Virus record (IMG/VR): IMGVR_UViG_2703718841_000007
Reading direction: 5' to 3' (one strand)
Length of the DNA: 13,197 nucleotides
Source of the DNA: a virus
Lineage: Duplodnaviria; Heunggongvirae; Uroviricota; Caudoviricetes
The notes below the pieces were generated by a model that worked only from the letters and a program-made list of their open reading frames with translations, was not told where the DNA came from and searched no databases. The stretch's first letter is position 1. Each line of letters begins with the position of its first letter. The position numbers were made by a program, and so were the translations under genes. Positions 144 to 13,197 of the stretch are shown here, in pieces.

Positions 144-1331
144 ATGCGTGTCAATAAGTCCACAGAGCATTCCCGACATCCGCAAAAAATGTTAACATCC
201 ATAAAAACACCAAGCGTAATTATTATAATGAAATATATTTTTGAATACGGACTTTATCTCAGCATACTTATAGCGACAATATATGTCACTTCTAAGTTAT
301 TGGGTATTACACCTGCAAAACATAAATACGCCTCGCTTGATGGCTTACGTGGAATTTGTGCAGCAATGGTTGCTGTATTCCATCTTTACTGGAGAGCCGG
401 AGGAGAATCAGATATATACTGGTCTCTTGAGTACATTACACTCAGCAATGTAAAACGCGCCATATATCTAACAGGAGAGTTATCTGTTGGGGTCTTTTTT
501 ATGCTGTCTGCTTTTTTATTTTTCAAAAAGGCACTAGCGGACTCCTTCGATGTAAAAAGCTTTGCAATTTCACGATTCATGCGAATTTACCCACCTGTAG
601 TTGTTCTTTTATTTATAATATATATTGCAACATTTATCATGAATCCGGATAACCATACTCCAGTATCGCAATGGTTTATATCTTCATTACCATTTATATT
701 CAATCCGCCTGGCGCTAACATCAATGGTGTATCGCTCCAGATTGCCACATCTGGTGTGTTCTGGACGTTAGTCTGGGAATTACGCCTATACCTTGCAATT
801 CCATTTTTATATCTGATAATGAAAAACATCAAATATAAAGAAGCATTTGTTATTTTTTTAATGGGATGTGTTTTATTATTCAAGTATTTTATAAACAATG
901 AACAACACCTGAGTTATATAATGTATTTCCTTGCAGGATTTCTTGTCGCTACAATCAAGAGCAACAAGCGCCCATCAGATATAATCTGCGCTTTATTATT
1001 ATTCGCAGCCATATATTTTACTCGACATGCTTACAACACTACAACTCCGCTTTATATGTTTATTGTTTTCTACACAATAAAGTGCGGATGTGATTACTTT
1101 GGCTTACTTACATCCCTGCCTGTAACTATGCTGGGAACCTGCAGTTTCTCCCTTTATTTAGTTCATGGGATAACTCAAACAGTATCTAAACATTATTTAT
1201 ATAGTGCAGGAAACTATGTTTGGCAGATTTGTGCAATTATTGCGGCAGGTATCATTGCGCCGGTTATGTACAAATATGTCGAAAGTCGCAGCATCATACA
1301 TAAGCGTCCTCAACTTCAGATTGCAAAGTAG
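144..1331 (+). CDS. Integral membrane acyltransferase, acyltransferase-3 family (OafA/Oac-like O-acetyltransferase type)
   Basis: Long ORF that is highly hydrophobic throughout. Family-typical N-terminal motif YASLDGLRGICAAMVAVFHL and FFMLSAFLFF segment. Strongly AT-rich (one 60-nt line, 601-660, hand-counted at 15 G+C). True start is uncertain: ATGs at 144, 189 and 228, none with a good Shine-Dalgarno. Confidence 0.75.
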   Translation: MRVNKSTEHSRHPQKMLTSIKTPSVIIIMKYIFEYGLYLSILIATIYVTSKLLGITPAKHKYASLDGLRGICAAMVAVFHLYWRAGGESDIYWSLEYITLSNVKRAIYLTGELSVGVFFMLSAFLFFKKALADSFDVKSFAISRFMRIYPPVVVLLFIIYIATFIMNPDNHTPVSQWFISSLPFIFNPPGANINGVSLQIATSGVFWTLVWELRLYLAIPFLYLIMKNIKYKEAFVIFLMGCVLLFKYFINNEQHLSYIMYFLAGFLVATIKSNKRPSDIICALLLFAAIYFTRHAYNTTTPLYMFIVFYTIKCGCDYFGLLTSLPVTMLGTCSFSLYLVHGITQTVSKHYLYSAGNYVWQICAIIAAGIIAPVMYKYVESRSIIHKRPQLQIAK

Positions 1332-1695: not shown

Positions 1696-1943
1696 CCGAT
1701 GCTCCCCCTAAATTTTTGAAAAAATTAGAAGTGGTCAGAAATCACCCTGATTTGTTGGTGGTTTTGTATATATCTCTGTTAGTGATTTGAGCATTGGTGC
1801 AGTACGTTAATGTAGGTACTGCCCCAGCCCGGTGTCCCGCTGTGCCGGGATGAACGCGATCTCGTCCATCTGGCTGTCAAATCCCTGCATTGCCCGTCTG
1901 GGCATGTTCGCAATGAGAAAATCGGTTAATGCCGTTAACTGGC

Positions 1944-2396
1944 TCATATCATGGCCACCGTAATGCGTTTCAGCCCTTTGATGCGGCGTACTGCCAGTGT
2001 GGACTCTGCAATCAGGCTGGAGCGGGTTTCGTCACTTTCCTGCCCCGGATGGCTCTCACGGCGACCAACAGACGCAAATTCGCCCATCAAATCAGCTTTG
2101 GCACGTGCATATACCGCTTTGCGATAACGGGCGCACAACAGATTTTCGCCGTCAATTTCCACGCCCGAAACGTCCGCCGCGCGCTCATGGCCAGCATTGC
2201 GATACCTTGCCGCCACACTGACCAGATCATCATTGATTTCGCCGGCTGCAGTCAGCAGTGCCTGGCGGATGGTGGCCGCATCAATATCGGCCGGAATGGT
2301 GCGCTGGGACTGAAAATCTTTCACGCTCAGGTCAGGCCAGAAGCCATCATTCGTCAGAGTGGCATCGTCAAAATCAATTGAAGTTCCGCTGAACAT
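1944..2396 (-). CDS. P2 gpL-like head completion/stabilisation protein
   Basis: ORF resembles the gpL family (FWPDLS region, central acidic region, Y-rich C-terminal part) and lies downstream of the M-like gene as in P2. The track ORF starts at GTG 2435; the ATG at 2396 has a GGAG Shine-Dalgarno 7 nt upstream and is preferred. Confidence 0.6.
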   Translation of the reverse strand: MFSGTSIDFDDATLTNDGFWPDLSVKDFQSQRTIPADIDAATIRQALLTAAGEINDDLVSVAARYRNAGHERAADVSGVEIDGENLLCARYRKAVYARAKADLMGEFASVGRRESHPGQESDETRSSLIAESTLAVRRIKGLKRITVAMI

Positions 2397-2489
2397 CCTG
2401 TTTCTCCGGAAAAAAGCGGGCTGGCCGGTTTCCACGGGCGATACGCTTATGCGATCCCCTCCACCGCGCCCGCTTTCGGGTCGGTAGTC

Positions 2490-2681
2490 TTACTCGCCGC
2501 GTTTTGCGGCCTGAATCTCACCTTCTTCAAACCACGCATCAGATGCGCGGCCGTCAGCAGTCTGATAGTGGATCAGATACTGATTGCAGCTGTTGGTGTA
2601 CTCCGCACGGGCTTTGATATGCCCCTCTTCGCCGCTAATGGAAACTTCAACAACCTGGCCTAACTCATGCTTAAACGACAT
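2490..2681 (-). CDS. Hypothetical small protein (63 aa) between the M-like and L-like genes
   Basis: ATG start at 2681 with a GGGAG Shine-Dalgarno 6-7 nt upstream; the start lies 1 nt after the M-like stop (tight coupling). No family recognised. Confidence 0.5.
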   Translation of the reverse strand: MSFKHELGQVVEVSISGEEGHIKARAEYTNSCNQYLIHYQTADGRASDAWFEEGEIQAAKRGE

Positions 2682-2682
2682 A

Positions 2683-3396
2683 TCAAACTCCCGTAGACTC
2701 TTTTTTCAGCGCCCGCAGACGCGCAGCAATACGCTGCAACATCGTGCCAACACCACATTTAGGGTCGAATCCCTTCGCCTGCTCCAGCAGTTCCTTAGCC
2801 CGGAGCAATACTTCCCTGTCTTCCGTTGCCGCTGCGCGTGGCTCTCCGTTTTCATCGCGTAGCAGGTGCAGACCGGCAAACTTCAGGTATTTGGCCTTAA
2901 TGACCTCATACACATTCCAGTGCTGCGTCACGTTTTCCAGCGTACGGCCAAAATACGGCTCCACATCATGCCCCTGTACGGCTTCCGCTTCCGCCCAGGA
3001 CAACACCGTATCCGCCACAAACACCGGGAACGTACTGCCGAACGCGGCCGGGGTTTCCTGCCCCCGCTGGATTGCCATATCCGCCCAGTCCAGCGCCTGG
3101 TCAAACTGGCCTGTATCAAACAGCCAGACGACACACCAGGCAAAAACAGGATTCTGTTGCACACTGTCACCTTCCAGCCAGGATTGCGCGGTTGGCATCC
3201 AGCGCGGTAACAGCACATCACGCTTAAATTCCATTCGCTCAGCGCGGCTTTCAATCGCTGCAGCTGCGGCGACATCTTTCTCCAGCGCGACAATCTGAAT
3301 ATGCAGGCTGGTTTCCGTGTCCAGAGACTGCTGCTGTCGCAGTAACCGCTCCGCTTCAATTCGTGCGCTGTGGCGCTGTGCCGGTGACAGTTGCAT
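2683..3396 (-). CDS. P2 gpM-like terminase small (endonuclease/DNA-recognition) subunit
   Basis: N-terminus MQLSPAQRH..., LLPRWMP and WLFDTGQFDQALDWADMAIQRG segments match my recollection of the gpM family. ATG at 3396 with a strong AGGGGGA Shine-Dalgarno; starts 10 nt after the O-like stop. Confidence 0.7.
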   Translation of the reverse strand: MQLSPAQRHSARIEAERLLRQQQSLDTETSLHIQIVALEKDVAAAAAIESRAERMEFKRDVLLPRWMPTAQSWLEGDSVQQNPVFAWCVVWLFDTGQFDQALDWADMAIQRGQETPAAFGSTFPVFVADTVLSWAEAEAVQGHDVEPYFGRTLENVTQHWNVYEVIKAKYLKFAGLHLLRDENGEPRAAATEDREVLLRAKELLEQAKGFDPKCGVGTMLQRIAARLRALKKESTGV

Positions 3397-3406
3397 TAAA
3401 TCCCCC

Positions 3407-4108
3407 TTACTCGCCTGCCGGAGGCGCGACAGGTGCCCCGATAGCTACCGCTTCTTCCGCCTCACCCAGACGGGTTTCAATAGCAGATACGCGCTTATCA
3501 ATGGCATCCAGCGCTTCAGCCAGCGCCTGTAAGGCATCAGACTGTGAAGGTTCCTGCTCCGGGGTCTGCTCCGGTTCTTCGATACTGAAAAAATGGCGCC
3601 AGCCCTTTTTCGCTGTCTTTGACATTCCCTTTTCCTTTTTAAATTCCCTGACTTCATCAAACGCCAGCGGCTTGTATGGTCCGATGCGTTTTCCCCTGGT
3701 GCGGCTGAAACGTAACCGTGTGGTGCTTACCCCGGCCGGACTGTCAGTAATGGCCAGTCCCTCAAGATAGGTTTTCCCGGTATTTCTGAAATTGCCGTCC
3801 GGTGTAAACTCCGGTGATAAAAATAAAAGCTGACCGTCTGCATTTGCCTGTAGCAATGAAATCGCCGGACAGAGGCGGGCATATAAACGAAGAATACCTT
3901 CATCATCCCGCTCGGCTTTTACTTCCAGCACCTCCCCCATATTCCCGAAATTACGGGAATGTTCCGGCCATAACAGCGCGGTATACAAAGAGGGGTCATA
4001 TAATTCAGCGGCATCAAGCAACCATTGTTCTTCAATAAATCGCTTATCAACCGTTTCACCCGCAGTGGCGATACAAATCCAGTTTGTTGCCAGTTGTGAA
4101 CCTGACAT
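3407..4108 (-). CDS. P2 gpO-like capsid scaffolding protein/protease
   Basis: GKTYLEGLAITDSPAGVSTTRL and a C-terminal coiled-coil-like region (EALDAIDKRVSAIETRLGEAEE) resemble the gpO family. The track ORF starts at GTG 4168, but the ATG at 4108 has a perfect GGAGG 5 nt upstream and is preferred. Shorter than my recollection of P2 gpO (about 284 aa). Confidence 0.7.
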   Translation of the reverse strand: MSGSQLATNWICIATAGETVDKRFIEEQWLLDAAELYDPSLYTALLWPEHSRNFGNMGEVLEVKAERDDEGILRLYARLCPAISLLQANADGQLLFLSPEFTPDGNFRNTGKTYLEGLAITDSPAGVSTTRLRFSRTRGKRIGPYKPLAFDEVREFKKEKGMSKTAKKGWRHFFSIEEPEQTPEQEPSQSDALQALAEALDAIDKRVSAIETRLGEAEEAVAIGAPVAPPAGE

Positions 4109-4251
4109 ATTGCCTCCGTTCATGCTGCGGTTTTCAGTATCGCCAATAAAATTAACCGCCGCATTCACTTCATTTCGGATATAGGCTATTAGCCGAACAC
4201 ATCAGAAATAAAGCGGGATTTAATATACAAACGCCCGTGCATAATGTGTGC

Positions 4252-5496
4252 ATGGCTAAATATTCAGAAGAATTAAAAGGCGTTGCGCGGGCGCTTTATT
4301 TAAAACGCTATACCCCGCAGGAAATTGCCAGCGAACTTAATCTGCCTAACAGACGCATTGTCTATTACTGGGCGGAGAAATATTGCTGGGCGGAATTACT
4401 CAGTCATGAATCCACCGAAGATGCATTAAACCGTCGCATTCAGTCACTGACATTACGTGAAGGGAAATCGGAGCTGGAGCTGCGGGAGCTGGACAGTCTC
4501 GTTTCTCACCTGGTGAAACTACGTGCACAGCACAATAAGCATCAGGAAAAGCTGGCAGAAATTAAACACAGTGAAAATGATGCGCCGGCGCGTCAGTCCG
4601 GTGGCGACGAAAAGCCCCGGAAACGTGGCAAGTACAAAAAGAACGACATCAGCGGACTGACACAGGAAGATTTTGACCGGTTCGCGCTGGAGCACCTTTT
4701 CGGTTACCAGAAACACCTTCGCGCTAATCTTCATCAGCAAATCAGGAACATCCTGAAAAGCCGCCAGATTGGTGCAACCTGGTATTTCTCAATAGAAGCC
4801 TTTGAGAATGCGGTCATGACAGGCGATCCGCAAATCTTCCTGTCCGCATCAAAGGCTCAGGCGGAAGTATTCCGCAGCTATATCGTCAACATTGCGGAGC
4901 AGTATTTCGGCGTGGAGCTGACGGGAAACCCCATCCGCCTCTCCAACGGCGCGGAGATGCGATTCCTGTCCACCAACAAGAACACCGCCCAGTCATACAG
5001 CGGCCATCTGTACTGCGATGAATATTTCTGGGTACCCAACTTTGCAAAATTAAACGAAGTGGCCAGCGCGATGGCCACACACGACAAATGGCGAACCACC
5101 TACTTTTCCACCCCCAGCAGCAAAACGCACCAGGCGTACCCGTTCTGGACTGGTGAAGAATGGAAGCGCGGTGACAAAAAACGCGCGCGCGTACAATTTC
5201 CCACGGAGAAGGAGCTGCGCGACGGTGGACGGTTATGTCCTGATGGGCAGTGGCGCTACATCATCACAATGGAAGACGCGATCGCAGGCGGGTTTAATCT
5301 CGCCAGCATCGGGAAGCTGCGCAACCGCTACAACCGCGACACTTTCAACATGCTGTATATGTGCGTGTTCGTGGACAGCAAGGACAGCGTATTTTCGTTC
5401 TCTCACGTAGAACGCTGCTGTGTAGATCCGGATATGACAATGAAGCGGAACACTGGACGCTCCCGATTGACCGGCTGGCGCTGGCGCAACTGGTGA
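4252..5496 (+). CDS. P2 gpP-like terminase large (ATPase) subunit, C-terminally truncated; probable pseudogene
   Basis: N-terminal HTH-like region, then KSRQIGATWYF (Walker A-like), FLSAS, DEYFWVP (Walker B-like) and YFSTPSS...PFWTGE typical of the gpP family. Family resemblance stops near 5427 (...HVERCCVD) and the ORF ends after a 23-aa unrelated tail. It has about 415 aa against about 590 in P2 gpP (recalled), so the C-terminal nuclease domain is absent. The GTG at 4237 is an alternative start. Confidence 0.65.
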   Translation: MAKYSEELKGVARALYLKRYTPQEIASELNLPNRRIVYYWAEKYCWAELLSHESTEDALNRRIQSLTLREGKSELELRELDSLVSHLVKLRAQHNKHQEKLAEIKHSENDAPARQSGGDEKPRKRGKYKKNDISGLTQEDFDRFALEHLFGYQKHLRANLHQQIRNILKSRQIGATWYFSIEAFENAVMTGDPQIFLSASKAQAEVFRSYIVNIAEQYFGVELTGNPIRLSNGAEMRFLSTNKNTAQSYSGHLYCDEYFWVPNFAKLNEVASAMATHDKWRTTYFSTPSSKTHQAYPFWTGEEWKRGDKKRARVQFPTEKELRDGGRLCPDGQWRYIITMEDAIAGGFNLASIGKLRNRYNRDTFNMLYMCVFVDSKDSVFSFSHVERCCVDPDMTMKRNTGRSRLTGWRWRNW

Positions 5497-6332
5497 ACCT
5501 GAACGCGCAGCACGGCGGTGTGCTGTATGCCCGTCGCAATATGGTGACGGCAAACTATAAAGACGGCGGACTGACGCATGAACAGCTTGGTGCAGCCGTG
5601 TTCGACTGGCTGACCTTCGGTGATGTGGCCATTCTGAAAGTGCGTAACGGCTGGGGGGATGTGGTGGCACTGTACCCGCTGCCGGCACTCTATACCCGCC
5701 AGCGTAAGACCGGGGAGTTTGTGGTACTGCAGCAGGGTGAACCGATGATTTATCCGCCTGAAGATATTATTTTTCTCAGGCAGTACGATCCGCAACAGGC
5801 GATTTATGGTCTGCCGGATTATATCAGCGGTATCCATTCTGCCCTGCTTAACGGTGAGGCAACAATTTTTCGTCGGCGTTACTACCATAACGGCGGACAC
5901 ACAGGTGGCATGATCTACTGTAACGACCCAAATATGACTGATGAAGTGGAAGAAGAAATTATTCAGAAGCTGGAGCAGTCAAAGGGGATCGGGAACTTCA
6001 GCACCATGTTTGTGAACATCCCCAAAGGCGATCCGGACGGCATCAAATTTATCCCGATTGGGGATATCAGCGCCAAAGATGAGTTTCAGAACATCAAGAG
6101 CATCAGCGCCCAGGACGTACTGACCGCGCATCGATTCCCGGCAGGACTGGCGGGGATTATCCCGACGAACGGCGCAGTAATGGGAGATGTTGAGAAAGCG
6201 TCCAAAACCTACCGCAAAGCAGAAATTTTGCCCATTCAGCGCATGTTTACCGCCGCAGTGGAACAGGAAAGTGATGTACCGCCCCACCTGTACCTTAATT
6301 TCCTGAAAGACAGTGAGCTGGAAGGTGATTAA
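5361..6332 (+). CDS. P2 gpQ-like portal protein, N-terminally truncated and out of frame with the upstream P-like ORF; probable pseudogene
   Basis: IYGLPDYISGIHSALLNGEATIFRRRYYHNGGHTGG and the downstream KGIGNF...DGIKFIPIGDISAKDEFQNIKSISAQDVLTAHRFPAGL resemble the gpQ portal family. Resemblance begins about 25-35 residues into this frame-3 ORF, which overlaps the end of the frame-1 P-like ORF. The listed start is a GTG chosen by the ORF caller, not a credible initiation site. Confidence 0.6.
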   Translation: MRVRGQQGQRIFVLSRRTLLCRSGYDNEAEHWTLPIDRLALAQLVNLNAQHGGVLYARRNMVTANYKDGGLTHEQLGAAVFDWLTFGDVAILKVRNGWGDVVALYPLPALYTRQRKTGEFVVLQQGEPMIYPPEDIIFLRQYDPQQAIYGLPDYISGIHSALLNGEATIFRRRYYHNGGHTGGMIYCNDPNMTDEVEEEIIQKLEQSKGIGNFSTMFVNIPKGDPDGIKFIPIGDISAKDEFQNIKSISAQDVLTAHRFPAGLAGIIPTNGAVMGDVEKASKTYRKAEILPIQRMFTAAVEQESDVPPHLYLNFLKDSELEGD

Positions 6333-6385
6333 TGTTCGCAAAAAGGCTAAAATATCATCGTTTTCCAACTTCCGGAGCGATGGAT

Positions 6386-6661
6386 ATGCGGGTAATGAAG
6401 GTTTACTGTCCGGTATGTGAGGCAAGGGCTGTTATCAAAAAAACAGCCCGAAAACACAAGGAACTGTCGGATTTATATTGCGCGTGTACCGATGTTGAAT
6501 GTGGTCACACTTTTGTGATGAATATGACATTCTCACATACCATCAGCCCCAGCGCCAAATCCAGCGATGCGTTGATCGCCACTATCTGTAACAGCCTTGA
6601 TATCCAGCAAAAGCAGCTGATGTTAAAGTTTCTGAGTCAGGACGGCACTGCTGCCGCATAG
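6386..6661 (+). CDS. ogr: Ogr/Delta-family zinc-finger late-gene transcriptional activator
   Basis: Exact C-x2-C-x22-C-x4-C spacing (CPVC...CACTDVEC) as in P2 Ogr. The ATG at 6386 has GGAG 8 nt upstream. The frame is open from the ATG at 6332, which overlaps the portal stop as TAATG; another ATG at 6395 would give an MKVYCPVC N-terminus, closest to Ogr. Confidence 0.8.
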   Translation: MRVMKVYCPVCEARAVIKKTARKHKELSDLYCACTDVECGHTFVMNMTFSHTISPSAKSSDALIATICNSLDIQQKQLMLKFLSQDGTAAA

Positions 6662-6800: not shown

Positions 6801-7520
6801 ATGTTAATAGTCTCAGTTCTTAAATGTAGTAAAGAGTTTACCCCTAAACACGCCCAATGGCTTCATCGTCAGTTCAAAGATATTCCATCTATATGTTTAA
6901 CCGATGCAGATAATATTCCTGGAGTTAACACAACCCCTTTGCTTTATAACTGGCCGGGATGGTGGTCTAAAATTGAACTATTTAATCCTAATCACCCAGT
7001 CCTTGGAGACCAAGATTTACTCTATTTTGACGTAGATGTTGTGGTCACGGGAGATATTCATATTTTCGAAGGTGCGAAGAAATTTACAATGCTTCGGGAG
7101 TTTAACCATGCCTCAAGAGTAAACTCATCAATAATGATGATTCCGGCGTCGATTAAAAAGACGATTTGGGAACAATTCATTATTGATCCTGAGAAAATTA
7201 TGCGCAATTGTCAGACTGAAGACAAATGGGGTGATCAGGGATTTCTCGGTAGCATCATAAAACCAGCCCTATGGCAGGATATCATTCCTGGCTCAATTGT
7301 TAGTTATAAATGTGACATCGCCACCCCCTCGATGATTGGCTTCAATGCAAATTTAGCCTCTGAGGCTGCGACAGGGAAAGTCCCTGATAATGTGGCGGTT
7401 GTTTGCTTTCATGGCAGTCCACGCCCCTGGCGTACTGGTTTTGATTGGGTTCCTTCGTTTTCCCTGCGGGATACTCTGTACGGTAAATTAAAGAACTTTA
7501 AAATAAGAATGAAGCAATAA
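6801..7520 (+). CDS. GT-A-fold glycosyltransferase-like protein (GT8-like DxD and H-x-G-x-x-[KR]-P-W motifs); accessory/cargo gene
   Basis: LYFDVDVVV (DxD, about residue 75) and CFHGSPRPW (about residue 212) match the two signature motifs of retaining GT8-type transferases (LgtC/WaaJ type), with similar inter-motif spacing. Strong Shine-Dalgarno. AT-rich relative to neighbours (60-nt lines hand-counted: 6841-6900 has 24 G+C, 7141-7200 has 21 G+C). Convergent with the primase gene. Confidence 0.5.
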   Translation: MLIVSVLKCSKEFTPKHAQWLHRQFKDIPSICLTDADNIPGVNTTPLLYNWPGWWSKIELFNPNHPVLGDQDLLYFDVDVVVTGDIHIFEGAKKFTMLREFNHASRVNSSIMMIPASIKKTIWEQFIIDPEKIMRNCQTEDKWGDQGFLGSIIKPALWQDIIPGSIVSYKCDIATPSMIGFNANLASEAATGKVPDNVAVVCFHGSPRPWRTGFDWVPSFSLRDTLYGKLKNFKIRMKQ

Positions 7521-7588: not shown

Positions 7589-10246
7589 TTACTTTTCCCG
7601 GCCAAATATCCAGCAGCGGAATGTTTCCGGCATCCGTTGCATATCCCCTTTACCACGATTATGGCGCTCACTTACCGCGCTGCGCGTGGTGCTTTGTCTG
7701 ATAAACCGGCGCTCATTGCCGTTTTTAAGCAGCTTTTTAATTTCCGTTAACGTGAACGGAATACGCTGCCGGTGTGCTGCGGCGACCTCTTCCATGTGAT
7801 TGAAATTAACCGCGATTTCATTTTCATCTGATGAATGATTGATGCCATAAGGTGCCAGTTCATCCAAGTAATCAAACAGCTCCCAGAACTCCTGCACCAG
7901 AGGATGATCCTTTTTAAGTGCCTGACAACGTTCAACGGCCAGCGCGGTGATGGCTTCACGCGTTTTTTCTATACGTTCAACCGGCACCGGTACAACAAGT
8001 GCAAGCGCCTCCAGCAAGCCCACAAGCTGCGCGTGATTCTTTGCAATACGGATATGGCGAATACTGCTATTAGACTCCAGCTCATTCCTAGCTCGCTCGT
8101 ACCCCCTGCCGAACGTCTGCATGATTTCTTTTTCGCGCATGGTGGCCAGTAATGTGAATCCGGATACCTGGCTAACGGGGAGTTGTTCAAGTCGTTCTGC
8201 AGCGTGGCGCGTCTGAATGGACTGGCCGCGCTTGTCGGTATAGATGTGGATGATACGCTCCAGAAACGCCTTGCTGCCGTCTGTGTCGGCATTTTGCGCT
8301 ATCACAATACTTCCCCTGAACGGCGGCTCATACGTCTCGTTATTGTTCGATTTGATACCCACGGCGCGGGAGGCACGACCGTTATACAGTGATTTCAGCT
8401 CGTCCCAGTCAAAAGCGCGTTGCTTGGCGTTATCGGTAGTACGGTCGCCCTCAATCAGCACAACCGGCAGATTACCGACCTGGGCGAAGTTACGGCCACG
8501 CGCGGCGGCGGTAGATTTAGATGGGTCAAACCCTTCGTATTCCTCACGGCCGGCGAGCTTCCAGAGAAATTCTATCAGCGTGGATTTACCTGTCCCCGGC
8601 TCGCCCACGATTTCCAGAAACGGAAATGACTTGTCACGCTCGCGGATTTGTTCGGCAAACAGCGACCCCAGCCAGAACGCCAGAGCCACATACCCTTTTT
8701 CACCAAATGCCGTCCAGATATCGTCTACCCAACCCGTAGTAAACTCGTTCAGCTTCGGATTCAGATCCAGCGCCGGCGTGAGGCTCAGGCTCTTAACACT
8801 GGCACTGTTGATTTCGAAGTAATCCTCGTCGTTCATCTCATACAGCCGGCCATCGCAAACGGCCACGCGGTTAAACAACCAGGCGGCATAATCCTTGTTA
8901 TAGCCGATGAAATTCTGCGTCTTTACCTCTTTGATTTCAGGGAGGCGCATCTGGATGAACTTATCCAGCTGTTTGGTGCTGCCTGTGTACACCGCCCCTT
9001 TGGCGATGTGCAGCAGACGCTTTTTGAACTCGGCGGAGCTGGTGAGCTGATTAGCCGTGAAAGTATCTTTCACGGCTGGCCGGTTAGGCATACTGACTTT
9101 CACGTAATACCAGGACTCGTCCGTAGGTTCAGACCGCTGAAAGTAAAGCGGCGTCAGCCAGCAGTTAGCTATTTCGGTCACGCCGCCTGACTCTTTAACC
9201 GCCCGTTCTTTGGCCTCCCACTCCATCACCACTTCGGTACCGGTATTGGTGATGCGCTCATAGGCTCGCATATACCTGTCCAGATCCAGCTCAAACCAGT
9301 ACATGCGGGAGTTATGCTCAAAGTAGAACGAGTGCCACTCGTTATGCTGATGCATGAGCAGCGCTTTCTCAGTCGGGCTTTTTGCCAGAAGGAGATCGCC
9401 ATAGTAGCGATAATTTTTAATGTCCGACTTACTGAACCGGTTACGTAACAACAGGTCATTCCAGTCCAGCGATGCCGATGATTTCACCGGCTGCGCGGCA
9501 CGAGTTTTCCATCCTGCAGCATCACTACGGGCAGCGAACGCCAGTGTGTGCTTTGTGCCGGCTTTATCGCCGTCAAACGCCCATACAAGACGTGGACGTG
9601 GTTTTTCACCCAGTTCTTTGGCCAGCGTATCCAGTGCGGCCAGCGGATAGTTGTTACTGCTCAGTGTGGCAACTGCAGGTAACCCTGCCTGGCACAGACT
9701 CAGCGCGTTGAAGATTCCCTCAGTGATCCAGATTTCGTTCACTTCCTGCAGGTTGATAAAGGGAGGAACCCACCAGTGACCGACATAGCTTCCCCTGATG
9801 TTGGCTTTCTGCTTACCGAAGCGCTGCGGCTGGTCAATGATGCGCTCCCATGTTGCACCGCATGACAGCGAAAATCTGACCGTTGCCGACCCCATGCCAT
9901 CTTTCACGAATGCACCCTGGGTAAAACAGCCTTTTAATGGCTCAGTCTCCAGCCCTCTGGCCTCGCGCAGATACGCCTCAGCTACTGCATGGGGGTTATC
10001 TTCTGTGGTCTGGTAACGTTTTGACCAGTCTTCAAAGATATCCGGATACAGCTCTTTCACGACAATCTGATGTGCGCAGTTATTTTCACGGCCACATTTC
10101 AGAATCCAGGGCTTTTCTATGCTGGTAAATAATTCGCGCTTACGACAGGCAGGGCAAACGCCCTGCTGCAAATACTTATCCCGCTCTTTAAATTCAAAGT
10201 CCCGAACAAGACGGCGCACAACGTCCTGTTGTATCGTTTCGTTCAT
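7589..10246 (-). CDS. P4-alpha-type bifunctional DNA primase/helicase (zinc-binding plus TOPRIM primase, P-loop helicase, C-terminal domain)
   Basis: CPACRK...CGRENNC zinc motif; TOPRIM-like ITEGIFNALSL and WAFDGDKAG; Walker A IVGEPGTGKST. One 60-nt line (8461-8520) hand-counted at 38 G+C. The ORF is open from TTG 10282; the first ATG is 10246; neither has a good Shine-Dalgarno. This is not a P2 A-type rolling-circle initiator. Confidence 0.8.
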   Translation of the reverse strand: MNETIQQDVVRRLVRDFEFKERDKYLQQGVCPACRKRELFTSIEKPWILKCGRENNCAHQIVVKELYPDIFEDWSKRYQTTEDNPHAVAEAYLREARGLETEPLKGCFTQGAFVKDGMGSATVRFSLSCGATWERIIDQPQRFGKQKANIRGSYVGHWWVPPFINLQEVNEIWITEGIFNALSLCQAGLPAVATLSSNNYPLAALDTLAKELGEKPRPRLVWAFDGDKAGTKHTLAFAARSDAAGWKTRAAQPVKSSASLDWNDLLLRNRFSKSDIKNYRYYGDLLLAKSPTEKALLMHQHNEWHSFYFEHNSRMYWFELDLDRYMRAYERITNTGTEVVMEWEAKERAVKESGGVTEIANCWLTPLYFQRSEPTDESWYYVKVSMPNRPAVKDTFTANQLTSSAEFKKRLLHIAKGAVYTGSTKQLDKFIQMRLPEIKEVKTQNFIGYNKDYAAWLFNRVAVCDGRLYEMNDEDYFEINSASVKSLSLTPALDLNPKLNEFTTGWVDDIWTAFGEKGYVALAFWLGSLFAEQIRERDKSFPFLEIVGEPGTGKSTLIEFLWKLAGREEYEGFDPSKSTAAARGRNFAQVGNLPVVLIEGDRTTDNAKQRAFDWDELKSLYNGRASRAVGIKSNNNETYEPPFRGSIVIAQNADTDGSKAFLERIIHIYTDKRGQSIQTRHAAERLEQLPVSQVSGFTLLATMREKEIMQTFGRGYERARNELESNSSIRHIRIAKNHAQLVGLLEALALVVPVPVERIEKTREAITALAVERCQALKKDHPLVQEFWELFDYLDELAPYGINHSSDENEIAVNFNHMEEVAAAHRQRIPFTLTEIKKLLKNGNERRFIRQSTTRSAVSERHNRGKGDMQRMPETFRCWIFGREK

Positions 10247-10285: not shown

Positions 10286-10504
10286 CTATATTCTGTACTG
10301 CTTGTTATATCGCTCATGTGTCATTAGTTCCCAGCTTCTGCCCTTATCCTTACTCAGTAATCGCCAGCGATAAGAAACATAAACAGAGAAATAATGTTTT
10401 GGCTTAATAACCTGATATACCTTTTTGCCGTTGTAATATTCTGTCAGCACTGAAAATGCCTTGTGAATGACACTTTCACTTGCATGAGAGGTCACTGTAA
10501 GCAT
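10286..10504 (-). CDS. Hypothetical protein (72 aa), AT-rich
   Basis: ATG start 2 nt after the exonuclease stop; ends 3 nt before the primase ORF. No family recognised. Lys/Tyr/Arg-rich. Confidence 0.45.
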   Translation of the reverse strand: MLTVTSHASESVIHKAFSVLTEYYNGKKVYQVIKPKHYFSVYVSYRWRLLSKDKGRSWELMTHERYNKQYRI

Positions 10505-10506
10505 CG

Positions 10507-11076
10507 TTATTTCACACTGGCTATTTTTACAAGATACATCCAGACATAAGAAACAACTTTAGCCTGATGAATGGCATCATATAAAGCGTGATGTTTAACA
10601 CCATCAAACTTAATAATATTACGAACATTCAGCCCAAGTGTTTTTGACAGTTCAACAACCGTTCTTACATCACGGTCATTCCAGTAGTACCAAAGTGGAT
10701 CGGCAAACCCGCATTTCTCTGATGCATTACGTAAAATAACATTGTCGAACGCTGCACTATTCCCCCATACCTGTACTTTAGATGGGTCAGAATGCTCAGT
10801 AATAAAAGCTTCCAGATTAGCTAACGTCAGAGGCAAGTCCAGACAATCGTCATTAAGCAGCTCGCTACGCGCTTCGGCATCCTGACGCATCCACCATAAT
10901 ACGGTTTCTGACCCCATAGTGAGACCGTGGCCTACACAGCTGCCCAGGCTGACACGTTGATAAAACTGTTCACCCATTTCGCCAGTTTCAGGGTCAAAGA
11001 ATACAGCACCGATAGAAGCAATCGCAGAAGTCGGTTTATTATCCATTGTTTCAAGGTCAATCATTAAATGTTTCAT
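10507..11076 (-). CDS. DEDDh-type 3'-5' exonuclease (DnaQ/RNase T-like fold)
   Basis: Exo I MIDLET (D-x-E), Exo II WGNSAAFD, Exo III HHALYD (H-x4-D). AAGGA Shine-Dalgarno 8 nt upstream of the ATG. AT-rich (line 10561-10620 hand-counted at 19 G+C). Confidence 0.7.
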   Translation of the reverse strand: MKHLMIDLETMDNKPTSAIASIGAVFFDPETGEMGEQFYQRVSLGSCVGHGLTMGSETVLWWMRQDAEARSELLNDDCLDLPLTLANLEAFITEHSDPSKVQVWGNSAAFDNVILRNASEKCGFADPLWYYWNDRDVRTVVELSKTLGLNVRNIIKFDGVKHHALYDAIHQAKVVSYVWMYLVKIASVK

Positions 11077-11447: not shown

Positions 11448-11729
11448 CTAACGAGCACTTTTATCTTTCGTGAATAAACGGTTCTTCCAGTCATGCCATT
11501 CAGGCGGGGCAATTTGAGCCAAATGAATGGCATAAGCATCCCATTCCCCCCGATGGATATAGATTTCCCCACCTTTTTTTGATGGATTTAGAGGGTCTTT
11601 CATGCGGATTACCGGCAGTTTTCCAGCCGTGGCCATTTTGCGAATTGCAGCAGGCGTTTTGCCTATATATTCGGCAAAAAGCTCAGGGGTCACCAACTCT
11701 GAAAGCGCCTTTTCTGCTGGTTCCTTCAT
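11448..11729 (-). CDS. cox: P2 Cox-like excisionase/switch repressor
   Basis: 93 aa with AGKLPVIRMKDP, corresponding to the KLPVIDM region of P2 Cox as I recall it. It is transcribed divergently from the C-like repressor and is the first gene of the early operon, as in P2. Confidence 0.7.
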   Translation of the reverse strand: MKEPAEKALSELVTPELFAEYIGKTPAAIRKMATAGKLPVIRMKDPLNPSKKGGEIYIHRGEWDAYAIHLAQIAPPEWHDWKNRLFTKDKSAR

Positions 11730-11837: not shown

Positions 11838-12137
11838 ATGTCAAGAAATTATGCGGAGAAACTCCGGCAGATCCGGAAAGCTGAAGGGTTAACTCAAAAA
11901 GATTTTTCAGAGCTTACTGGGGTAGCTCTTGGAACAATAAAAAAGTACGAAACTGGCCATCAGCCAGCTCGTGCAGAAGTCTTAGAAAGTGTTATAGAGG
12001 TACATATGTTTGAAAAATATACACTCTGGTTAATGACAGATAAGACGGCACCAATTGCGGGGCAGGTGTCCCCGTCTCTCTCCCCTGATGGGCAAGACAA
12101 CATAACATCATCCCGTTCCACCCGGAAAATTGGCTAA
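11838..12137 (+). CDS. P2 C-type immunity repressor (small XRE-family HTH protein)
   Basis: 99 aa, the same length as P2 C. HTH LTQKDFSELTGVALGTIKKYETG and the KYTLWLMTDKTAPIAGQVSP segment match my recollection of P2 C (KYTLWFMT...). Lies upstream of and co-directional with int, as in P2. Confidence 0.8.
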   Translation: MSRNYAEKLRQIRKAEGLTQKDFSELTGVALGTIKKYETGHQPARAEVLESVIEVHMFEKYTLWLMTDKTAPIAGQVSPSLSPDGQDNITSSRSTRKIG

Positions 12138-12203: not shown

Positions 12204-12464
12204 ATGTCGATTAAGAAGCTTGATGATGGTCGTTTTGAAGTGGACGTTAGACCGCGCGGAACCTCAGGAAGAAGGATTCGACGCAAATTTGACAGAAAGG
12301 CGGAAGCACAGGCATACGAGCGGTATGTACTGACAAACTTTCACGATAAAGAATGGCAGGATAAACCCGCAGACAGGAGGCTTGTATCCGAGTTAATTTC
12401 TTTATGGTGGAGCTACCATGGAAAGAATCACAACTATGGTGACTCATATAAAAAGCGTTTGGAA
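12204..12464 (+). pseudogene. int: Tyrosine integrase, N-terminal arm-binding domain fragment (frame 3), separated from the catalytic part by a +1 frameshift
   Basis: MSIKKLDDGRFEVDVRPRGTSGRRIRRKFDRKAEAQAYERY is a typical phage integrase N-terminal domain. GGAGGG Shine-Dalgarno 7 nt before the ATG at 12204. The reading frame switches inside the A7 run at 12463-12469. Confidence 0.65.
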
Positions 12465-13197
12465 AAAAATCAACCGAGAAATGGCGGAACCCAGAGTGTA
12501 CGAGCTTACCCGCAACTTTCTGATGAAATATCGTGCAGAACGACTTCATAGTGGAGTATCTGCTGGCACGGTAAACAGGGATTTCTGTTCCATGTCCAGC
12601 ATGTTCAGTTTGCTGATAGATATGGAAGAATTTCATCACGAAAACCCGTTTCGCGCCGTGAAGAAGTTACGTCTGGAAAACACAGAAATGTCATTTCTGT
12701 CCGAAGAAGAGATCCACCATTTGCTGAATGCCCTTACAGGGGATGATCGCAGAGTTGTCGTTCTTTGCCTGAATACAGGAGCACGATGGGGTGAAGCCAG
12801 TAATCTTAAAGCTGAAAACGTGATAAGTAACCGTGTGACCTTTGTTAAGACCAAAACCGGCCCAGCTCGTACTGTTCCGATATCGAAGGAAATCGCGGAC
12901 TACATCCTTACACGCAAATCGGGGAAATTGTTCGATACCAACTATGAGCGAGTTCGCGATGTTCTTCGTAAGATTAAGCCAGACTTGCCGAAAGGTCAGG
13001 CACTGCATGTTTTACGCCATACCTTCGCAACACATTTCATGATCAACGGCGGGAATATCATCACGCTACAGCGTATTTTGGGTCATACAACAATCGAGCA
13101 AACAATGACATATGCTCACTTCGCCCCAGATTATCTGACTGATGCCATACGATTTAACCCTATGCGTGGGAGTGTCCACATAATGTCCACCGACTAG
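12418..13197 (+). CDS. int: Tyrosine integrase, core-binding and catalytic domains (frame 1); C-terminal part of the frameshifted int
   Basis: Catalytic signatures TGARWGEA (box I Arg) and HVLRHTFATHFMINGGNIITLQRILGHTTIEQTMTYAHF (H-x-x-R and Tyr region). The stop codon is the last three bases of the window. The ORF's own ATG at 12418 is internal to the gene. Confidence 0.85.
   Translation: MERITTMVTHIKSVWKKINREMAEPRVYELTRNFLMKYRAERLHSGVSAGTVNRDFCSMSSMFSLLIDMEEFHHENPFRAVKKLRLENTEMSFLSEEEIHHLLNALTGDDRRVVVLCLNTGARWGEASNLKAENVISNRVTFVKTKTGPARTVPISKEIADYILTRKSGKLFDTNYERVRDVLRKIKPDLPKGQALHVLRHTFATHFMINGGNIITLQRILGHTTIEQTMTYAHFAPDYLTDAIRFNPMRGSVHIMSTD

Follow-up and report, generated by a model that had tools for sequence, protein, structure and literature searches.

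The missing capsid gene of a defective P2-family prophage in Escherichia coli almost certainly reflects a 1.2-kb in-frame deletion

The window analyzed here, a stretch of 13,197 nucleotides, is a whole defective ESSI-2-like prophage (genus Evevirus, P2 family) that has become fixed at raiA-pheL within a single E. coli lineage. Genes were called by combining a listing of open reading frames (ORFs) with Pfam scans. The 16-mer CCTTCGGGCGCGTTTT at positions 30–45 is the probable attL core; in an intact relative, it is repeated ~90 nt past the integrase stop, on the attR side, which lies beyond the window. An acyltransferase gene (Acyl_transf_3; 144–1331, plus strand) adjoins the attachment site as prophage cargo, and its counterpart in the nearest phage, ev239, is an O-acetyltransferase. 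The possibility that the prophage, or one of its modules, ends at position 1818 was considered and rejected, as the att core lies at ~30 and the acyltransferase is phage cargo; the sequence of strain BY63 runs on past 1818.

The next genes lie on the minus strand. Deletion junction A (1815–1818, microhomology GGTA) borders a tail-terminator (gpR-like) remnant of only the first ~44 codons (1816–1947), which RefSeq annotates as a partial pseudogene in strain PSJ-12. The remnant is followed by an intact head completion gene of the gpL family (1944–2435), a small conserved phage ORF of 63 aa (2490–2681) that is also found between M and L in ev239, and an intact small terminase subunit gene of the gpM family (2683–3396; PF05944, E 9e-39). 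Upstream of the latter lie the native N-M junction (3397–3409), consisting of the stop TAA, the Shine-Dalgarno sequence AGGGGGA and a 10-nt spacer; the final 12 codons of N, the capsid gene (3410–3445), which encode the C-terminal tail AIGAPVAPPAGE of a fusion protein; and deletion junction B (3443–3451), with the exact microhomology TACCGC at 3446–3451. The O::N fusion ORF itself (3407–4108; PF05929, E 8e-31) encodes 233 aa. On the plus strand, we found a truncated large terminase gene with its ATPase domain kept (4252–5496), deletion junction C (5433–5435, microhomology TAT), a portal gene without its native start and first ~40 codons (5436–6332), an intact Ogr/Delta-type zinc-finger late-gene activator (6332–6661), and an intact glycosyltransferase-like gene (6801–7520). 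The right part of the window holds a primase gene (7589–10246), a ParE-like ORF (10286–10504), an exonuclease gene (10507–11076) and a Cox-like gene (11448–11729), all on the minus strand, and then a repressor-like gene (11838–12137) and an integrase pseudogene split into two ORFs (12204–13197), both on the plus strand.

The nearest phage is Escherichia phage ESSI2_ev239 (NC_049392.1; Peduoviridae, Evevirus), a coliphage isolate (PMC10910852). Its gene order from integrase to tail matches that of the window, except that a capsid gene of 1,029 nt separates O from M, and its tail and lysis arm is complete. By BLAST, the window shares 98% nucleotide identity with ev239 over 1815–3451 and 82–88% elsewhere; over the shared head, packaging, and replication genes, the identity to this classified member of the P2 family is 82–98%. 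Between the intact sister prophage and ev239, the identity is 92% across 20 kb. The intact relative of the window lies in E. coli NT1F10 (NZ_CP075462.1), which carries a full-length ~29-kb prophage at raiA-pheL with intact O (279 aa), N (342 aa), P (593 aa), and Q (339 aa). This prophage is 99.8–99.9% identical to the window, and about a dozen other strains carry full-length ~29-kb prophages with the same identity. In complete E. coli genomes, raiA-pheL is the invariable location of the element.

The window, ev239, and the NT1F10 prophage share the order integrase, primase, Ogr, portal, terminase, scaffold, small terminase, and head completion, and the cargo acyltransferase at the attachment site is common to the window and its intact relatives. 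The head cluster has the divergent Q-P / O-N-M-L arrangement of the P2 family, with the Pfam domains Portal, Terminase_6N/Terminase_5, Phage_GPO, Phage_term_smal, and Phage_GPL in P2 order; N is missing from this cluster only because of the deletion mapped below. In contrast to both intact relatives, the window lacks the capsid gene, the 3′ end of the scaffold gene, the nuclease domain of the terminase, the 5′ end of the portal gene, and all tail and lysis genes, and its integrase is frameshifted. It is therefore a remnant of a P2-family prophage and not a complete inducible phage genome.

As the original prediction had stated, no capsid gene lies between the O-like ORF (PF05929) and the M-like ORF (PF05944). 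The P2 gene order O-N-M-L on which that prediction drew was also right, and so was its comparison with the length of P2 gpO, which is 284 aa. The stop of the O-like ORF had been placed at 3407–3409 and the ATG of M at 3396, with AGGGGGA between them, and the minus strand from 3409 to 3394 reads TAAGGGGGATTTAATG; here, AGGGGGA overlaps and follows the stop (3409–3407), and the 10-nt spacer (3397–3406) leads to the ATG at 3396. The label of O-M junction given to this site was mistaken. The stop and start form the native junction between the capsid stop and the terminase start, base-identical in NT1F10, and the 41 bases at 3380–3420 around them are the same in that strain. The scar had been expected within these 41 bases; the real joint, at 3443–3451, lies ~40 nt upstream, just outside them.

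Of the two origins that had been proposed for the junction, the first, an in-frame deletion of the 3′ end of O and nearly all of N, is confirmed at base resolution by the endpoints mapped against NT1F10. Relative to the NT1F10 prophage, 1,201 bp are missing at junction B: scaffold codons 222–279 with the stop (177 nt), a 34-nt spacer, and capsid codons 1–330 (990 nt). Alignment to NT1F10 further shows that the fusion protein consists of O residues 1–221 joined to N residues 331–342. Its last codons therefore do derive from the 3′ end of N, as had been suspected, and the stop used is that of N. The microhomology that had been suggested as a further check is also present: the 6-bp TACCGC occurs in scaffold codons 220–221 and in capsid codons 329–330, and a looser match extends to 8 of 9 positions over 3443–3451. 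A protein at full length for its own family, with relatives that also lack N, had been named as the outcome that would speak against a deletion scar, and neither feature was found. The fusion starts at ATG 4108, in agreement with the native gene and RefSeq; a 253-aa ORF from GTG 4168 was rejected as the gene on the same grounds.

Based on these endpoints, the capsid gene was almost certainly lost in one 1,201-bp deletion by illegitimate recombination between the two TACCGC copies. The capsid frame of the parent is +1 relative to the scaffold frame, and 1,201 is of the form 3n+1, so the scaffold frame continues to the capsid stop. Since the sequence downstream of the joint is unchanged, the capsid stop, the Shine-Dalgarno sequence, and the small-terminase start together resemble an intact tight junction. 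Thus, a tight, well-formed junction beside a missing gene may be no more than the unaltered downstream boundary of the gene that was deleted, which calls for caution in reading such sites. Taken alone, the in-frame fusion and the intact M and L could hint at a retained function. We infer that the in-frame outcome was a one-in-three chance and that the fusion has no selected function. The lesion is ordinary defective-prophage damage and is already annotated: in RefSeq, the fusion product is entered as a GPO family capsid scaffolding protein, and the pseudogenes beside it are flagged.

A step in the BLAST identity to ev239, 98% to the left and 84% to the right of joint B, suggested a mosaic boundary at this position. 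When the intact prophage of NT1F10 was scanned against ev239 by sliding comparison, the identity was 95–100% through N and the joint and dropped only deeper in O, which ruled out such a boundary.

The fusion and P2 gpO both belong to the GPO family and share 33% identity. P2 gpO comprises a protease domain at residues 1–141 and an internal scaffolding domain at residues 195–284, and the latter is absolutely required for procapsid assembly (PMC7552001). The catalytic Asp, His, and Ser of P2 (D19, H48, and S107) align with D21, H50, and S98 of the fusion and are invariant in the alignment, and the fusion is thus predicted to retain the N-terminal serine-protease domain with its Asp-His-Ser triad. 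In contrast, the joint falls at about P2 gpO residue 233 of 284. Of the 279 residues of the native scaffold, the final 58 have been replaced by 12 capsid residues, and profile coverage extends over positions 2–230 of 268 in the Pfam model and 5–230 of 287 in the PHROG model. Most of the C-terminal scaffolding and capsid-binding domain of P2 gpO (195–284) is therefore missing from the fusion, which carries a capsid C-terminus instead. The order O-N-M-L is alike in P2 and in the ancestor of the window. Judged from these alignments, the fusion is a predicted protease domain without a working scaffold, the reverse of what a satellite would require to redirect capsid size.

The other lesions of the element were read against the same near-isogenic intact NT1F10 prophage. 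At junction A, 13,898 bp are missing, from the non-coding DNA past the acyltransferase into the tail-terminator gene, and the tail fiber, baseplate, tape measure, lysis, and sheath/tube genes are lost with them. At junction C, 717 bp are missing, which takes away ~600 nt at the 3′ end of P and ~40 codons at the start of Q, and P and Q are left out of frame. The large terminase has consequently lost its nuclease domain, seen as Terminase_6C in intact copies, and its frame ends 20 codons past junction C. The integrase is frameshifted by one extra A (A7 versus A6, at ~12457–12463), and RefSeq likewise marks the PSJ-12 integrase as frameshifted. With the fusion and these three other lesions, the element would be unable to build heads or tails, cut DNA, or excise.

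The distribution of the scar bears on whether the capsid gene is missing from the DNA or only from an assembly. The window matches a draft contig (LOOF01000002.1 of GCA_001576305.1) at 100% identity, and a collapse during assembly could in principle have removed the gene. However, junction B is present in 2 of 5,426 complete genomes, and these two closed genomes with the same joint come from different laboratories; further samples assembled in NCBI and Logan have the joint as well, and the shared repeat of only 6 bp is too short for collapse. We therefore give an assembly artifact practically no credence. Sixteen complete genomes contain the O segment; apart from these two, the remaining 14 match on the O side only and lack junction B. 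Gene annotation or gene calling showed intact O and N in NT1F10 and in further strains. In an index search, the fusion protein was found in 31 blocks of the collection, and the glycosyltransferase of the prophage in 1,196. All 24 fusion-encoding contigs that were read have the raiA-pheA context and the same three deletions, most carriers have an extra 954-bp deletion in the primase gene, and four representative carrier loci match the window at 100% throughout their aligned parts. In sister strains (PK5, YPE10, E89, HZ13, BY63, GCA_028598035, GCA_054792755, and GCA_900448905), this prophage has suffered other, independent deletions or IS insertions. This pattern is that of a resident prophage being dismantled and not that of a maintained mobile element.

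The second origin proposed in the original prediction was that the element is natively capsid-less, a satellite whose scaffold-like protein redirects the capsid size of a P2-family helper that mobilizes it. On the surface, the window does follow P4- or PICI-type logic: an integrase-regulator-primase-Ogr/Delta backbone stands beside packaging genes with no capsid gene, as in the systems with P4 Sid, SaPI CpmA/CpmB, and PLE TcaP, and the O::N fusion is in frame. However, the same backbone occurs in the complete phage ev239 and in the full-length prophages at the same site, and near-identical relatives at this locus carry intact O and N, with the breakpoints falling inside both ORFs. Moreover, the part of gpO that was lost is the scaffolding domain itself, the terminase and portal genes are broken out of frame, and the integrase is frameshifted, so that a scaffold acting without its own capsid is contradicted both by the loss of most of that domain and by three further inactivating lesions. 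Among the ORFs scanned with Pfam and PHROGs, none matched Sid/Psu/CpmB/TcaP-type or defense families, and the sole scaffold-like protein is the truncated gpO.

Satellite mobility would call for a working integrase and independent sites or hosts, whereas every carrier read has the element at one chromosomal locus with identical sequence. P4, SaPI, and PLE are natively capsid-less, possess dedicated size-determination scaffolds, and are mobile at many sites; in contrast, the window has a deleted capsid gene and no scaffolding domain, and it is immobile. Nor does it fit the capsid-forming PICIs (cfPICIs), which encode a capsid, portal, and head-completion set of their own and, of the terminase, the small subunit only, as it has no capsid gene, a truncated portal gene, and a large-terminase fragment. 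A native satellite is accordingly a very improbable reading, and it is almost certain that the missing capsid gene reflects the 1.2-kb in-frame deletion in a decaying P2-family E. coli prophage.

A further reading is that of a domesticated remnant, in which the fusion and/or M and L block superinfecting Evevirus or P2-like phages, or in which the cargo acyltransferase or glycosyltransferase is selected. The fusion ORF is open with its catalytic triad kept, M, L, Ogr, the acyltransferase, and the glycosyltransferase-like gene are intact, and the lineage is present in at least 24 assemblies, all of which would suit such a role. Against this, the zero divergence among carriers leaves no sign of selection to be read, the 954-bp primase loss in most carriers resembles continuing decay, and O, M, and L are freely deleted in other strains. 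A search for defense systems in the element with PADLOC also returned no meaningful matches. Domestication thus appears very unlikely, though slightly less remote than a satellite origin.

Decay of the resident prophage also agrees with what is seen in cryptic E. coli prophages, which likewise reside at a single site, have several deletions and a frameshift, retain cargo genes, and contain IS insertions, the latter found here in sister strains. Unlike typical cryptic prophages, a nearly identical intact copy of this one still circulates at the same site. This places the decay in the very recent past and allows every lesion to be mapped at base resolution. The locus is a clean textbook case of prophage decay in which the intact parent form survives in sister strains. 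Its recognition removes a false lead to a possible new capsid-less satellite; the finding itself is of very little consequence. Wider interest attaches only to the deletion endpoints, which are motif-biased and re-used.

The endpoints were compared over 17 distinct deletion junctions of this prophage family, with the tails of other truncated O alleles (P0002 and P0008) mapped by tblastn. The dinucleotide TA lies within the microhomology at 11 of the 17 junctions, where 5% would be expected from 200,000 simulated junctions. Among the first 10 junctions, 8 have G[AGT]TA in both parents and in register (0.66% expected), and most TA-class endpoints fit G-R-T-A-Y on the plus strand. In the seven junctions gathered after the pattern was noticed, strict TA occurs in two (P about 0.04) and ordinary GC-rich microhomology in three. 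There seem to be two classes of junctions, and the three in the window all belong to the TA class.

Several enzymes were considered in connection with these endpoints. Integron integrases use secondary sites of the form GWTMW with the crossover at G/TT; this does not fit, as the base before TA comes from the left parent in the present junctions. Topoisomerase I, which follows a rule of C four bases upstream (PMC9352719), was rejected as the cause of the TA bias on reading the listed endpoint sequences: C is found at that position in ~4 of 17 junctions on the plus strand and in about half when both strands are counted, which is about chance. For E. coli gyrase, the consensus center is CGGCGGTAT/GGGG/ATACCGCCG (supplement of PMC6379681), and the endpoint 5-mer corresponds to GGTAT, immediately 5′ of the scissile bond in this consensus. 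The flanks of the endpoints match the gyrase consensus marginally above background (p 0.03–0.1), and the crossover lies 1 nt inside the predicted gyrase cut; this offset and the marginal flank match weaken the link to gyrase, which serves as a lead only.

We tentatively consider that the scar in the window and most deletions of the family could stem from type II topoisomerase-mediated illegitimate recombination at G-R-T-A-Y with a TA overlap, a reading that is possible but doubtful. If it is true, all three junctions in the window are examples, and the prophage's own ParE-like gene might aggravate such recombination. If the motif bias and the re-use of endpoints are confirmed on the roughly 1,000 public assemblies with the element, the family would provide a natural data set on prophage dismantling.

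The TA or G-R-T-A-Y class, together with the re-use of sites, indicates that "simple slippage" may understate the mechanism. In NT1F10-based coordinates, five sites (7517, 9598, 24244, 24285–8, and 30601) are each re-used by two to three independent alleles. Among these, 24244 is the scaffold-side endpoint of junction B and is also used by another allele, in which O is fused to a tail-side ORF.

The arm encoding the whole tail, the baseplate and the lysis functions is missing from the window, having been lost in a 13,898-bp deletion whose junction lies at 1815–1818. The left endpoint of this deletion (immediately after …GTAGGTA) is shared, to the nucleotide, with an independent deletion of 7,036 bp in strain YPE10. 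Across this prophage family, deletions do not end at random positions. Besides the capsid-gene deletion, the window has another internal one, outside the initial observation: 717 bp are missing at 5433–5435, with TAT microhomology. The large terminase has thereby lost its nuclease half and the portal its first ~40 codons, and the two remnants are out of frame (ORFs 4252–5496 and 5361–6332).

Most assemblies encoding the O::N scaffold–capsid fusion, including both closed genomes, have additionally lost 954 bp from within the primase gene. This deletion shows TA microhomology and is equivalent to 9087–10038 of the window. The primase is intact in the window and in 4–5 other assemblies; the window thus stands at an earlier point in the same series of decay steps.

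Two cargo genes are intact. The first, adjoining attL, encodes an Acyl_transf_3 acyltransferase (144–1331), and the second encodes a glycosyltransferase-like protein (6801–7520) that is assigned to PHROG 1962 and has no Pfam match. Whereas ESSI2_ev239, the closest phage, carries two hypothetical genes between ogr and the primase, the window has the glycosyltransferase-like gene in their place. Each cargo gene is kept in every examined decay variant that still covers its interval, and their products may modify the cell surface.

We compiled 17 junctions from the family, including those at 1815–1818, 3443–3451 (the capsid-gene scar) and 5433–5435 of the window and those in seven loci holding other copies of the prophage (L002, L003, L005, L015, L018, L021 and L035). 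TA occurs within the microhomology at 11 of the 17, against 5% expected. Read on the plus strand, the majority of TA-class endpoints match G-R-T-A-Y, and independent alleles share five of the endpoint sites. The endpoint 5-mer equals the GGTAT adjoining the cleavage position in the consensus published for E. coli gyrase, but the register is shifted by 1 nt and the flanks give weak support. A 72-aa ORF resembling ParE family toxins lies on the minus strand at 10286–10504 (RefSeq and contig-table annotation, PF24732); its sole relevance here is a speculative link to gyrase-dependent breakage.

The window covers the element from just past raiA to the integrase stop. The integrase itself is a pseudogene (12204–13197) owing to one additional A in a homopolymer at ~12457–12463, the run being A7 in the window versus A6 in intact relatives. 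The 16-mer CCTTCGGGCGCGTTTT at 30–45, similar in appearance to the terminator region of raiA, recurs ~90 nt 3' of the integrase stop in intact relatives and so probably marks the att core. Finally, the mechanical ORF call of the scaffold gene (GTG at 4168, 253 aa) is 20 codons too long, and the native start, in agreement with the intact prophage and RefSeq, is the ATG at 4108, giving 233 aa.
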